The notes beneath the pieces are model-generated. The model did no database searches. It was not told the origin of the DNA and worked only from the letters and a program-made list of their open reading frames with translations. Shown piece after piece: positions 54,205-59,341 of a stretch of DNA of 64,000 nucleotides. Position numbers and translations under genes: made by a program. The stretch lies in the NCBI RefSeq assembly GCF_056746865.1, contig NZ_CM163382.1; one strand, 5' to 3'. Position 1 is the first letter of the stretch. Each line of letters begins with the position of its first letter.

Positions 54205-55653
54205 ATGAAACTTAACGACAGTAACTTATTCCGCCAGCAGGCGTTGATTAACGGGGAATGGCTGGACGCCAACAATGGCGAGGTCATCGACGTCACCAAT
54301 CCGGCGAACGGCGACAAGCTGGGTAGCGTGCCGAAAATGGGCGCTGATGAAACCCGCGCCGCTATCGACGCCGCCAACCGCGCCCTGCCCGCCTGGCGTG
54401 CGCTCACCGCCAAAGAACGCGCCAACATTCTGCGCAACTGGTTCAATTTGATGATGGAGCATCAGGACGATTTAGCGCGCCTGATGACCCTCGAACAGGG
54501 CAAACCACTGGCCGAAGCGAAAGGCGAAATCAGCTACGCTGCCTCTTTTATTGAGTGGTTTGCCGAAGAAGGCAAACGTATTTATGGCGACACCATTCCC
54601 GGTCATCAGGCCGACAAACGCCTGATTGTTATCAAACAGCCGATTGGCGTTACCGCCGCCATCACGCCGTGGAACTTCCCGGCGGCGATGATTACCCGTA
54701 AAGCCGGTCCGGCGCTGGCGGCAGGCTGCACGATGGTGCTGAAACCTGCCAGTCAGACGCCGTTCTCTGCGCTGGCGCTGGCGGAACTGGCGATTCGCGC
54801 AGGCGTTCCGGCTGGCGTATTTAACGTGGTCACCGGTTCGGCGGGCGCGGTCGGTAACGAACTGACCAGCAATCCGCTGGTGCGCAAGCTGTCGTTTACC
54901 GGCTCGACCGAAATTGGTCGCCAGTTAATGGAACAGTGCGCGAAAGATATTAAAAAAGTGTCGCTGGAGCTGGGCGGCAACGCGCCATTTATCGTCTTTG
55001 AGGATGCCGACCTCGACAAAGCCGTGGAAGGCGCGCTGGCCTCGAAATTCCGCAACGCCGGGCAAACCTGCGTCTGCGCCAACCGTTTATACGTGCAGGA
55101 CGGCGTGTATGACCGCTTTGCCGAAAAATTACAGCAGGCGGTGAGCAAACTGCACATCGGCGACGGGCTGGAGAATGGCGTCACCATCGGGCCGCTGATC
55201 GATGAAAAAGCGGTAGCAAAAGTGGAAGAGCATATTGCCGATGCGCTGGAGAGAGGTGCGCGTGTGGTTTGCGGCGGTAAAGCGGATGACCGCGGCGGCA
55301 ACTTCTTCCAGCCGACCATTCTGGTGGACGTTCCGGCCAACGCCAAAGTGTCGAAAGAAGAGACGTTCGGCCCCCTTGCCCCGCTATTCCGCTTTAAAGA
55401 TGAAGCCGATGTGATTGCGCAGGCCAATGACACCGAGTTTGGCCTTGCCGCCTATTTCTACGCCCGTGATTTAAGCCGCGTCTTCCGCGTGGGCGAGGCG
55501 CTGGAGTACGGCATCGTCGGCATTAATACTGGCATTATTTCCAATGAAGTGGCCCCGTTCGGCGGCATTAAAGCCTCGGGTCTGGGTCGTGAAGGTTCGA
55601 AGTATGGCATCGAAGATTACTTAGAAATCAAATATATGTGCATCGGTCTTTAA
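54205..55653 (+). CDS. gabD: succinate-semialdehyde dehydrogenase (NADP+)
   Basis: 482 aa aldehyde dehydrogenase with catalytic Cys region GQTCVCANR and Glu region LELGGNAP. Confidence 0.95.
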   Translation: MKLNDSNLFRQQALINGEWLDANNGEVIDVTNPANGDKLGSVPKMGADETRAAIDAANRALPAWRALTAKERANILRNWFNLMMEHQDDLARLMTLEQGKPLAEAKGEISYAASFIEWFAEEGKRIYGDTIPGHQADKRLIVIKQPIGVTAAITPWNFPAAMITRKAGPALAAGCTMVLKPASQTPFSALALAELAIRAGVPAGVFNVVTGSAGAVGNELTSNPLVRKLSFTGSTEIGRQLMEQCAKDIKKVSLELGGNAPFIVFEDADLDKAVEGALASKFRNAGQTCVCANRLYVQDGVYDRFAEKLQQAVSKLHIGDGLENGVTIGPLIDEKAVAKVEEHIADALERGARVVCGGKADDRGGNFFQPTILVDVPANAKVSKEETFGPLAPLFRFKDEADVIAQANDTEFGLAAYFYARDLSRVFRVGEALEYGIVGINTGIISNEVAPFGGIKASGLGREGSKYGIEDYLEIKYMCIGL

Positions 55654-55666
55654 CTGGAGAACGCGA

Positions 55667-56947
55667 ATGAGCAGCAATAAAGAATTAATGCAGCGCCGCA
55701 GTCAGGCAGTTCCTCGTGGCGTTGGGCAAATTCACCCCATTTTCGCTGATCGCGCGGAAAACTGCCGGGTGTGGGACGTTGAAGGCCGTGAGTATCTTGA
55801 TTTCGCGGGCGGCATTGCAGTGCTCAATACCGGGCACCTGCATCCGAAAGTGGTTGCGGCGGTGGAAGCGCAGTTGAAAAAGCTGTCGCACACCTGCTTC
55901 CAGGTGCTGGCCTACGAGCCGTATCTGGAGCTGTGCGAAATAATGAATCAGAAGGTGCCGGGCGATTTTGCCAAAAAAACGCTGCTGGTAACGACCGGTT
56001 CTGAAGCGGTGGAGAACGCGGTGAAAATCGCCCGCGCCGCCACCAAACGCAGCGGGACCATCGCCTTTAGCGGCGCGTATCACGGGCGCACGCATTACAC
56101 GCTGGCGCTGACCGGCAAGGTGAATCCTTACTCTGCGGGCATGGGCCTGATGCCAGGGCATGTTTATCGCGCACTTTATCCGTGTCCACTGCACGGCATA
56201 AGCGAGGATGACGCTATCGCCAGCATCCACCGGATCTTCAAAAATGACGCCGCGCCGGAAGATATCGCCGCCATCGTGATTGAGCCGGTTCAGGGTGAAG
56301 GCGGTTTCTACGCCGCGACGCCAGCCTTTATGCAGCGTTTACGCGCGTTGTGTGACGAGCACGGGATCATGCTGATTGCCGATGAAGTGCAGAGCGGCGC
56401 GGGGCGTACCGGCACGCTGTTTGCGATGGAGCAGATGGGCGTTGCGCCGGATCTTACCACCTTTGCGAAATCGATCGCAGGCGGCTTCCCGCTGGCGGGC
56501 GTCACCGGGCGCGCGGAAGTGATGGATGCCGTCGCTCCAGGCGGTCTGGGCGGCACCTATGCGGGTAACCCGATTGCCTGCGTGGCTGCGCTGGAAGTGT
56601 TGAAGGTGTTTGAGCAGGAAAATCTGCTGCAAAAAGCCAACGATCTGGGGCAGAAACTGAAAGACGGATTGCTGGCGATAGCCGAAAAACATACTGAGAT
56701 CGGCGACGTACGCGGGCTGGGAGCGATGATTGCCATCGAGCTGTTTGAAGATGGCGATCACAGCAAACCAGACGCAAAACTCACCGCCGAGATCGTGGCG
56801 CGTGCTCGCGATAAGGGCTTGATTCTTCTCTCCTGCGGCCCGTATTACAACGTGCTGCGCATCCTTGTACCGCTCACCATTGAAGACGCTCAGATCCGTC
56901 AGGGTCTGGAGATCATCAGCCAGTGTTTTGCAGAGGCGAAGCAGTAG
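55667..56947 (+). CDS. gabT: 4-aminobutyrate aminotransferase
   Basis: 426 aa class-III PLP aminotransferase. Confidence 0.95.
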   Translation: MSSNKELMQRRSQAVPRGVGQIHPIFADRAENCRVWDVEGREYLDFAGGIAVLNTGHLHPKVVAAVEAQLKKLSHTCFQVLAYEPYLELCEIMNQKVPGDFAKKTLLVTTGSEAVENAVKIARAATKRSGTIAFSGAYHGRTHYTLALTGKVNPYSAGMGLMPGHVYRALYPCPLHGISEDDAIASIHRIFKNDAAPEDIAAIVIEPVQGEGGFYAATPAFMQRLRALCDEHGIMLIADEVQSGAGRTGTLFAMEQMGVAPDLTTFAKSIAGGFPLAGVTGRAEVMDAVAPGGLGGTYAGNPIACVAALEVLKVFEQENLLQKANDLGQKLKDGLLAIAEKHTEIGDVRGLGAMIAIELFEDGDHSKPDAKLTAEIVARARDKGLILLSCGPYYNVLRILVPLTIEDAQIRQGLEIISQCFAEAKQ

Positions 56948-57257
56948 TCATGTCCGTTCGTAAGAGTTAACCGTTGCTAAGGGAATGATAACGATGCAGT
57001 AAAAAATAATAACGATGAGGCGAACGACAAAGTTAAAAACGACTGCGGACAGTCCCCTCGCCCCTCTGGGGAGAGGGTTAGGGTGAGGGGTAAAAAACGC
57101 GACTAACCCCTCCCCCGGCCCTATCCCTGAGGGAGAAGGAGAAAACCATCCCGCTTTCGTTTTTAAGATTTTGTTGACCGTCTCAATTACACGCGTGACC
57201 CGACGCGGGAAATGTCGGGGCGCTCTCCCAAGTGACACACTTTCGAGAGGATTCAGG

Positions 57258-58658
57258 ATGGGGCAATCATCGCAACCACATGAGTTAGGCGGCGGGCTGA
57301 AGTCACGCCACGTCACCATGTTGTCTATTGCCGGTGTTATCGGCGCAAGTCTGTTTGTCGGTTCCAGCGTCGCCATCGCCGAAGCGGGCCCGGCGGTATT
57401 ACTGGCCTATCTGTTCGCCGGATTACTGGTGGTTATGATTATGCGGATGTTGGCGGAAATGGCGGTTGCCACGCCCGACACGGGTTCGTTTTCCACCTAT
57501 GCAGATAAAGCTATTGGTCGTTGGGCGGGCTATACCATCGGCTGGTTGTACTGGTGGTTTTGGGTACTGGTTATCCCGCTGGAAGCCAACATCGCCGCCA
57601 TGATCCTGCACTCGTGGGTTCCAGGCATTCCCATCTGGTTATTTTCCCTCGTCATTACCCTCGCCTTAACTGGCAGTAATTTATTAAGCGTTAAAAACTA
57701 CGGCGAATTTGAGTTCTGGCTGGCGCTGTGCAAAGTCATCGCTATCCTGGCCTTTATTTTCCTTGGTGCAGTCGCAATTAGCGGTTTTTACCCTTATGCC
57801 GAAGTGAGCGGGATCTCAAGATTGTGGGATAGCGGCGGCTTTATGCCCAACGGCTTCGGCGCAGTATTAACCGCGATGTTGATCACCATGTTCTCGTTTA
57901 TGGGCGCAGAAATTGTCACCATTGCCGCCGCGGAATCTGACACGCCGGAAAAACATATTGTCCGCGCCACCAACTCGGTTATCTGGCGTATTTCTATCTT
58001 CTATTTGTGCTCTATTTTTGTCGTCGTGGCATTAATACCGTGGAATATGCCGGGGCTGAAAGCCGTTGGATCTTATCGCTCGGTTCTGGAGTTGCTCAAT
58101 ATTCCCCATGCGAAATTAATCATGGACTGCGTGATATTACTTTCCGTAACCAGTTGCCTGAACTCGGCGCTGTATACCGCTTCCAGAATGCTCTACTCCT
58201 TAAGCCGTCGCGGTGATGCTCCCGCGGTAATGGGTAAAATCAACCGCAGTAAAACCCCGTATGTGGCGGTATTACTCTCGACCGGTGCGGCATTTTTAAC
58301 GGTGGTGGTGAATTATTACGCGCCTGCGAAAGTGTTTAAATTTCTGATCGACAGCTCCGGCGCTATCGCCCTGCTGGTTTATTTAGTCATCGCCGTTTCA
58401 CAATTGCGGATGCGCAAAATTCTGCGAGCAGAAGGAAGCGAAATTCGCCTGCGGATGTGGCTTTATCCGTGGCTCACCTGGCTGGTCATCGGCTTTATTA
58501 CCTTTGTGTTGGTAGTGATGCTATTCCGCCCGGCGCAACAGTTAGAAGTGATCTCCACCGGCTTATTAGCGATAGGGATTATCTGTACCGTGCCAATTAT
58601 GGCTCGCTGGAAAAAGCTGGTATTGTGGCAAAAAACACCCGTTCATAATACGCGCTGA
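57258..58658 (+). CDS. gabP: GABA permease (APC family)
   Basis: 466 aa from MGQSSQPHELGGGLKSRHVTMLSIAG; multi-pass membrane transporter. Confidence 0.9.
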   Translation: MGQSSQPHELGGGLKSRHVTMLSIAGVIGASLFVGSSVAIAEAGPAVLLAYLFAGLLVVMIMRMLAEMAVATPDTGSFSTYADKAIGRWAGYTIGWLYWWFWVLVIPLEANIAAMILHSWVPGIPIWLFSLVITLALTGSNLLSVKNYGEFEFWLALCKVIAILAFIFLGAVAISGFYPYAEVSGISRLWDSGGFMPNGFGAVLTAMLITMFSFMGAEIVTIAAAESDTPEKHIVRATNSVIWRISIFYLCSIFVVVALIPWNMPGLKAVGSYRSVLELLNIPHAKLIMDCVILLSVTSCLNSALYTASRMLYSLSRRGDAPAVMGKINRSKTPYVAVLLSTGAAFLTVVVNYYAPAKVFKFLIDSSGAIALLVYLVIAVSQLRMRKILRAEGSEIRLRMWLYPWLTWLVIGFITFVLVVMLFRPAQQLEVISTGLLAIGIICTVPIMARWKKLVLWQKTPVHNTR

Positions 58659-58678
58659 TAATGATCAGGAGTCACACC

Positions 58679-59341
58679 ATGACCATTACGTCTCTGGATG
58701 GCTATCGCTGGCTGAAGAACGATATTATTCGCGGTAATTTTCAACCGGATGAAAAATTACGGATGAGTTTGCTTACATCGCGTTATGCACTTGGCGTTGG
58801 GCCGTTACGGGAAGCTCTTTCGCAACTGGTGGCGGAACGGCTGGTCACGGTGGTGAATCAAAAAGGGTATCGGGTGGCGTCTATGTCAGAGCAGGAGCTG
58901 CTCGATATTTTCGACGCCCGCGCCAATATGGAAGCGATGCTGGTCAGTCTGGCGATTGCCCGCGGTGGCGATGAATGGGAGGCAGACGTTCTCGCAAAAG
59001 CGCATCTGCTCAGTAAGCTGGAGGCCTGTGACGCCAGTGAGAAAATGCTTGATGAGTGGGATCTGCGTCATCAGGCGTTTCATACGGCAATTGTGGCGGG
59101 CTGTGGTTCTCACTATTTGCTGCAAATGCGTGAACGGTTGTTTGATCTGGCGGCGCGCTATCGATTTATCTGGCTGCGGCGAACAGTGCTTTCGGTGGAG
59201 ATGCTGGAGGATAAACACGATCAGCACCAGACCCTGACAGCGGCGGTACTGGCGCGAGATACCGCGCGCGCCAGTGAGTTAATGCGCCAGCATTTACTGA
59301 CGCCAATTCCCATTATCCAGCAGGCGATGGCTGGCAATTAA
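58679..59341 (+). CDS. csiR: GntR-family transcriptional repressor CsiR
   Basis: 220 aa from MTITSLDGYRWLKNDIIRGNF. Confidence 0.85.
   Translation: MTITSLDGYRWLKNDIIRGNFQPDEKLRMSLLTSRYALGVGPLREALSQLVAERLVTVVNQKGYRVASMSEQELLDIFDARANMEAMLVSLAIARGGDEWEADVLAKAHLLSKLEACDASEKMLDEWDLRHQAFHTAIVAGCGSHYLLQMRERLFDLAARYRFIWLRRTVLSVEMLEDKHDQHQTLTAAVLARDTARASELMRQHLLTPIPIIQQAMAGN

Follow-up and report, generated by a model that had tools for sequence, protein, structure and literature searches.

An inverted, partly decayed BoxC (PIT/TMECO) doublet in the gabT-gabP spacer of Escherichia coli

Introduction

BoxC is a non-coding repeat dispersed through the genomes of E. coli and related enterobacteria, where it is found strictly between genes; it is said to have been originally described, as box C, beside envM by Bergler et al. 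in 1992. The family has carried successive names, BoxC being followed by PIT (potential intrastrand triplex) element and then by TMECO, the name used by Holder et al. 2015 (PMC4666352); the earlier literature includes Bergler 1992 and Bachellier 1996, as cited in PMC4666352, and Hoyne and Maher 2000 and 2002. The TMECO consensus is 5'-CCCTCNCCC N3-6 GGGNGAGGG N3 GGGNGAGGG[G/T/C/-]-3', the class called "type A mm" is the commonest in K-12, and all five K-12 doublets consist of a type A (TTA) and a type B (CCG) unit lying on opposite strands (PMC4666352). In the same study 63 TMECO loci were catalogued, in supplements without gene names, these loci were found to be unusually variable, often mutated or partly deleted, and more variable than control sites across 56 strains, and no mobile element could be linked to the family (PMC4666352).

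The same family was discovered independently by Kaplan et al. 2016 in the form of the G-quadruplex-hairpin motifs HPG1 and HPG2, which have 16 and 7 intergenic members respectively, frequently arranged in opposed pairs with a C-rich 5' flank (PMC5100583). Literature searches on a possible MITE nature of BoxC and on subsequent studies of its function returned only PMC4666352 and PMC5100583.

REP, BIME and REPIN elements are similar to the BoxC doublet in that they are short intergenic palindromes occurring as inverted doublets and forming long hairpins, but the sequences of the two groups are unrelated. REP elements in other operons are able to uncouple gene levels through protection against 3'-to-5' exonucleases or through processing, and REP/BIME is the closest analogue for the possible behaviour of BoxC in mRNA.

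The genes gabT and gabP are members of the csiD-lhgO-gabDTP operon (PMC6265302). The spacer between them contains a palindrome which we compare here with the families described above, with regard to its identity, its extent, its distribution among E. coli and related genera, and the roles that might be ascribed to it.

Results

The locus and its ancestral spacer

The DNA analysed was a stretch of 64,000 nucleotides, hereafter called the window, in which positions 56850-57350 have 100% identity to E. coli 118UI (NZ_CP032515.1); from its sequence, the host of the window is E. coli. The gabT stop is located at 56947 and the gabP ATG at 57258, the spacer thus being 310 bp long, and the repeat that a preliminary description had reported between these genes is indeed found there, its quoted sequence lying at 57060-57140. 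All features are listed in Table 1.

Table 1. Coordinates of the features of the gabT-gabP region within the window
Feature	Position	Strand	Basis
gabT CDS, upstream neighbour	55667..56947	+	ORF list; gabT annotation in the 100% identical NZ_CP032515.1
142-aa ORF, ATG start, uninterrupted; its frame arises from the repeat together with the reverse strand of the gabP start	56948..57376	-	ORF list
Ancestral spacer block, AGTTAACCGTTGCTAAGGGAATGATAACGATGCAGTAAA region	56972..57003	+	common to Citrobacter and Shimwellia; its right end adjoins the inserted segment
~180-bp segment of the window-type allele, holding the whole palindrome	57004..57183		missing from the orthologous spacer of three Citrobacter species and Shimwellia
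Full imperfect palindrome, 163 bp; predicted long hairpin as RNA or single-stranded DNA	57020..57182		fold predictions
Left outer arm, locus-specific, outside the dispersed repeat	57025..57048		inverted repeat I2
Intact type A unit, "A mm" (TTA second loop, one stem mismatch)	57055..57090	+	exact consensus match
Central spacer / hairpin loop	57091..57106		alignment with K-12 doublets; shorter than the usual ~26 nt
Degenerate type B unit (CCG second loop class)	57107..57139	-	intact counterpart at the same site in other strains
Right outer arm, locus-specific	57151..57176		inverted repeat I2; single-copy query 57141-57190
Conserved gabP 5' leader, two hairpins, outside the repeat	57193..57248	+	alignment of 21 distinct sequences from six genera
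gabP CDS, downstream neighbour	57258..58658	+	NZ_CP032515.1 annotation; ORF list

A block just 3' of gabT (GTTGCTAAGGGAATGATAACGATGCAGTAAA) is kept in Citrobacter and Shimwellia despite their genus-level distance. Positions 56972-57003 match the Citrobacter loci L030, L042 and L054 at 93.75% over 32 nt and the Shimwellia locus L027 at 82%; within these positions CGATGCAGTAAA is invariant among the sequences compared, and the block has been lost from the REP-type allele of K-12.

Copy number

With the 111 nt at 57040-57150 as a query, 71,304 places were found in 5407 of 5426 complete E. coli genomes, with a median of 15 and a maximum of 27 places per genome (12 in 118UI, which is identical to the window); 71,275 of these places are chromosomal and 29 are on plasmids, and the window itself contains one copy. 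The sequence is thus multi-copy, and the earlier suggestion that it resembles a small intergenic repeat family can be made specific, as the family is BoxC/PIT/TMECO. Beyond this core the situation is different: the outer arms, queried as 57004-57054 and 57141-57190, were each found once per genome, in 1304 genomes each, leaving a core of only about 100 bp as the dispersed-family part of the palindrome. The outer arms were also considered as shared ends of a mobile element and were rejected as such, being single copy in those 1304 genomes.

Doublet architecture

The gabT-gabP palindrome is identifiable as an inverted BoxC (PIT, TMECO) doublet that is partly decayed, and hence as a known family in a known arrangement. 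On the plus strand, 57055-57090 reads CCCTCGCCC-CTCTG-GGGAGAGGG-TTA-GGGTGAGGG-G, which agrees exactly with the TMECO consensus and is the sole strict match in the 64-kb window, with 0.00 expected from shuffles. This 36-nt A unit is identical to K-12 TMECO nos. 9, 16, 19 and 22 (Table 1 of PMC4666352), the first of which is located between fabI (formerly envM) and ycjD. No. 19 sits between the operon genes pstA and pstB (locus L010), and since this K-12 copy is intra-operon as well, such placement is not peculiar to gab.

The second unit, on the minus strand at 57107-57139, reads CCTTCTCCC-TCA-GGGATAGGG-CC-GGGGGAGGG, the CCG loop being reduced to CC with a shift in register; it fails the strict TMECO pattern because of two stem mismatches and the loss of 1 nt. 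The window doublet therefore has A and B units on opposite strands, and it can be aligned over its full length with four K-12 doublets (alx-sstT, hrpB-mrcB, fepB-entC and ygfF-gcvP). In its consensus match, intergenic position, multiple copies, inverted A+B arrangement and strain-variable locus the gab copy is like the rest of the BoxC family, but it differs in having a degenerate B unit and a central spacer of about half the usual length, and its locus-specific flanks extend it into a 163-bp palindrome, an extension undescribed for this family. HPG1 and HPG2 belong to the same family, and the gab A unit likewise has four G runs; the regulatory switch proposed for HPG1/HPG2 was derived from in vitro CD data (PMC5100583).

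Extent and predicted folding of the palindrome

A GC-rich imperfect inverted repeat had been noted at 57040-57150. The inverted repeat was recovered, with pairs I3-I5 and I7 joining 57054-57091 to 57081-57116, and a palindrome is present at that position, but the range is too narrow, the real span being 57020-57182. Folded as RNA, the 111 nt of 57040-57150 give a stable predicted structure of -55 kcal/mol (z -3.75), which none of 200 shuffles equalled, and 57020-57185 is predicted to form a single long hairpin of -75.3 kcal/mol (z -5.7). The corresponding DNA folds of the two strands of the palindrome amount to -31.4 and -32.8 kcal/mol (z about -4). In inverted repeat I2, 57033-57048 and 57151-57166 are 88% complementary, and the B unit folded alone does no better than shuffles (z +0.22).

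Scanning 56800-57400 for terminator-like or promoter-like sites on the plus strand yielded none. A terminator-like site occurs on the minus strand at 57054-57041 (hairpin GACTGTCCGCAGTC followed by GTTTTTAACT), which is within the chance expectation of 0.8 per region, and no minus-strand gene ends near 57041-57054. An Rfam search at E<=10 returned only noise of the microRNA-hairpin type, in which no score exceeded 20.5 bits, the gathering scores being 37-97.

Allele forms in E. coli and related genera

The window-type spacer is carried by 1304 of the 5426 E. coli genomes (24%), including E. coli B/BL21, O104:H4 2011C-3493 and O26. Sampled genomes without it, K-12, Nissle 1917 and an O157:H7 strain among them, match the flanks only, and in K-12, Nissle 1917 and the other sampled non-carriers REP elements are found at the same site. 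The K-12 MG1655 spacer measures 237 bp, is REP-like after the gabT stop and unrelated to that of the window, with homology resuming at about 57190; its REP block is predicted to fold as RNA to -75.2 kcal/mol at the same position. In the window, a search of 56948-57257 for the REP consensus GCCKGATGCGRCG, tolerating as many as 2 mismatches, found nothing.

A wider comparison was based on 37 gabP loci obtained by scanning species-representative genomes. Among these, the REP-type spacer occurs in E. albertii, E. whittamii and two further Escherichia species, and the BoxC-type spacer in "E. coli E69" and Pseudocitrobacter faecalis, where the A unit and the B unit are both intact. In three Citrobacter species and Shimwellia pseudoproteus the spacer is short; it aligns with that of the window on both sides but is without 57004-57183. 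In the alignment this empty site reads GCAGTAAA-CACAA-CAATAATACGCGTG, the boundaries of the segment being accurate to a few bases. A candidate target duplication of about 10 bp (AATAATAACG and CAATTACACG, compared with CAATAATACG at the empty site) is weak and was not relied on because it is too AT-rich and diverged. By parsimony over few and distant genomes, and with no clear target-site duplication, the ~180-bp segment would have been added to an ancestral short spacer.

The REP-type slot has its own variation. A unit of ~90 bp that contains REP in the K-12 spacer is matched about six times in Escherichia sp. MOD1-EC7003 (L049) and four times in L026, so that REP copy number is a further variable of the gab slot. 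Spacers of the BoxC as well as of the REP type occur in the genus Pseudocitrobacter, in which gabD (L022), gabT (L022, L053) and gabP (L022, L026, L053) have 91-95% identity to the window genes at 54205-59341, a level usual within Escherichia, and the adjacent csiR has only 79-81%. This suggests a transfer of the gab genes between Escherichia and Pseudocitrobacter, the junction lying close to the gabP/csiR boundary.

Decay of the B arm

In other genomes, namely AMSHJX01, O26 RM10386, EC77, E. coli E69 and Pseudocitrobacter faecalis, the B arm agrees with the strict TMECO pattern, the intact unit at this site in the first three being CCCTCTCCCTTAGGGAGAGGGCCGGGGTGAGGGT. In a comparison of five alleles over 501 bp, 15 of the 27 variable columns are within 57091-57150 (spacer and B unit) and 1 is in the A unit; the changes in the B arm and spacer are uncompensated, and the outer palindrome arms are invariant. 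Such one-sided, uncompensated change argues against selection on pairing. The predicted energy of the full hairpin is -73 kcal/mol for the window, -69 for B18271 and -86 to -88 for the three alleles with an intact B unit, that is to say, the window hairpin is weaker than the latter by about 15 kcal/mol. A core with 99% or more identity to that of the window occurs in only 115 genomes. Cores identical to the intact O26 form are much commoner, at least several hundred genomes being suggested, an approximate figure obtained from rows sampled at even steps of the ranking and from identity bands that mix partial matches.

The decay of the gab B arm agrees with the variability published for TMECO loci (PMC4666352). 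At the alx-sstT doublet (K-12 nos. 12 and 13), a 75-bp deletion bounded by two direct CCCTCTCCC repeats has reduced the element of E. coli ZH063 (L055, compared with L012) to a simple hairpin, and in strain 600468 the same site is occupied by unrelated sequence about 290 bp longer. Clean empty sites of the K-12 doublets alx-sstT and ygfF-gcvP were sought among E. coli genomes, and none defining the ends of the element was found: alx-sstT offers internal 75-bp deletion or wholesale replacement only, and ygfF-gcvP has a different neighbouring gene.

The gabP leader

Past the repeat, conserved sequence resumes at the gabP 5' leader, upstream of which both the BoxC and the REP insertions are located. 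The leader is kept in Escherichia, the Citrobacter freundii group, Hafnia, Pluralibacter, Shimwellia and Pseudocitrobacter (21 distinct sequences). Its hairpin 1 shows compensating changes, one pair being AU in 11 and GC in 9 sequences and another CG in 18 and UA in 2, and its hairpin 2 covers the Shine-Dalgarno sequence GAGAGGA, with CUCUC pairing to GAGAG. Rfam gave no match to 57193-57248.

Discussion

It is very probable that an inverted BoxC doublet was added to a short gabT-gabP spacer and has no dedicated role in gab regulation, and the element is most likely a passively transcribed, slowly decaying selfish or neutral repeat. Since gabT and gabP belong to one operon, the doublet would be co-transcribed with csiD-lhgO-gabDTP and is expected to fold into a long hairpin in the mRNA, which would at most slow 3'-to-5' exonucleases in a passive manner. 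As DNA, the palindrome would be able to form hairpins, triplexes or quadruplexes and may thus constitute a mutation- and deletion-prone site; fragility of this kind would explain the B-arm decay seen in the window.

The preliminary description had proposed that the repeat acts as an mRNA stabiliser or attenuator within the operon. Of this proposal, a selected role is unsupported, given that no terminator-like site was found on the plus strand, that at least 76% of the E. coli genomes are without the window-type spacer at this site, that the element is absent from the alignable spacer of three Citrobacter species and Shimwellia and that compensation is lacking, and a passive effect of the hairpin on mRNA decay is possible by analogy with what is known for REP. 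The K-12 REP block is predicted to fold equally at the same place, which is suggestive of an exonuclease-barrier effect, but nothing comparable occurs in the short spacers of the three Citrobacter species and Shimwellia.

More tentatively, the BoxC A+B doublet may be a mobile unit resembling REPINs, the gab locus preserving one insertion, with the site filled in some Escherichia and one Pseudocitrobacter and empty in Citrobacter and Shimwellia, and REP having independently colonised the slot in the other E. coli haplotype; we regard this as possible but rather doubtful. The gab segment is similar to a MITE insofar as it is a discrete palindrome of about 180 bp with inverted ends, present or absent at a conserved site, but it differs from one in that its outer inverted ends are single copy, a target-site duplication is not clear and there is no partner transposase. 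We know of no RAYT-type transposase for BoxC. On the REPIN-like reading, the decay of one arm after insertion hints at strand-asymmetric mutagenesis of the palindrome.

A more specific role is that of a selected mRNA element, in which the stem-loop after gabT would protect the csiD-lhgO-gabDT message or serve as a processing site, thereby uncoupling gabP from gabDT. The very stable predicted hairpin (-55 kcal/mol for the core, -75 for the full palindrome), its location inside a known operon and the invariance of the outer stem in five alleles are in keeping with such a role, as is the REP of the K-12 allele, for which an equal energy is predicted at this position; that both alternative alleles reach about -75 kcal/mol here could mean that a strong gabT-gabP hairpin is favoured. 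However, the spacer of the three Citrobacter species and Shimwellia is free of any such structure, mutation of the B arm is unconstrained and uncompensated, at a cost of about 15 kcal/mol to the window copy, and the family is dispersed without bias in gene context or orientation, all of which makes selection for this purpose unlikely.

Selection might alternatively act on the DNA itself, through a non-B structure (a purine-motif triplex, or a switch between G-quadruplex, hairpin and duplex) serving regulation or local variation. The A unit has three triplex blocks and four G3+ runs (GGGG-AGA-GGG-TTA-GGG-TGA-GGGG), and triplex and quadruplex formation in vitro has been published for near-identical oligonucleotides (PMC4666352, PMC5100583), with CD and NMR triplex data for type A mm oligonucleotides and a control oligonucleotide implying that a sequence differing from the gab A unit only in loop 1 was tested (PMC4666352). 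The published variability of TMECO in 56 strains also fits the clustered variation at gab and the 75-bp deletion of ZH063. Against this, the instability is equally compatible with a side effect, and the variation is concentrated in the B arm and spacer but not in the intact A unit; moreover, in vivo DMS footprinting gave a stable triplex no support and the duplex forms when the complementary strand is present. Selection for a non-B structure is consequently a rather improbable explanation, even more so than selection for the mRNA hairpin.

It is very hard to reconcile the evidence with an intrinsic terminator or attenuator that lowers read-through from gabT to gabP. A long GC-rich stem is present and the right outer arm contains T-rich stretches (CGTTTTTAAGATTTTG, 57159-57174), but these T runs are paired in the outer stem and do not form a free tail, the scan found no site on the plus strand, and earlier experiments on PIT elements, to the extent that they are cited in PMC4666352, detected neither promoter nor terminator activity nor an effect on RNA polymerase. 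Finally, the minus-strand ORF 56948-57376, which had already been called spurious, almost certainly does not encode a 142-aa protein: it is an uninterrupted reading frame with an ATG start, but it is antisense to the gabP start and the repeat, matches no Pfam family at E<=1, is unannotated by RefSeq/PGAP in 118UI, and at least 76% of E. coli genomes have other sequence in its place.

In conclusion, the appropriate annotation of the region is a BoxC (PIT/TMECO) doublet, with the 142-aa ORF disregarded. What the locus adds to a known family is local in nature: the true extent of the palindrome, the BoxC and REP allele forms, the empty site in other genera and the decay of one arm. If the REPIN-like reading were true, the locus would provide evidence, at the level of a single site, for the mobility of BoxC. 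A natural comparison is also available here, with a BoxC hairpin in about 24% of E. coli, REP hairpins in the sampled others and neither in some Citrobacter, making the gab spacer a convenient locus at which to test the effects of repeats on the decay of operon mRNA or on local mutation.
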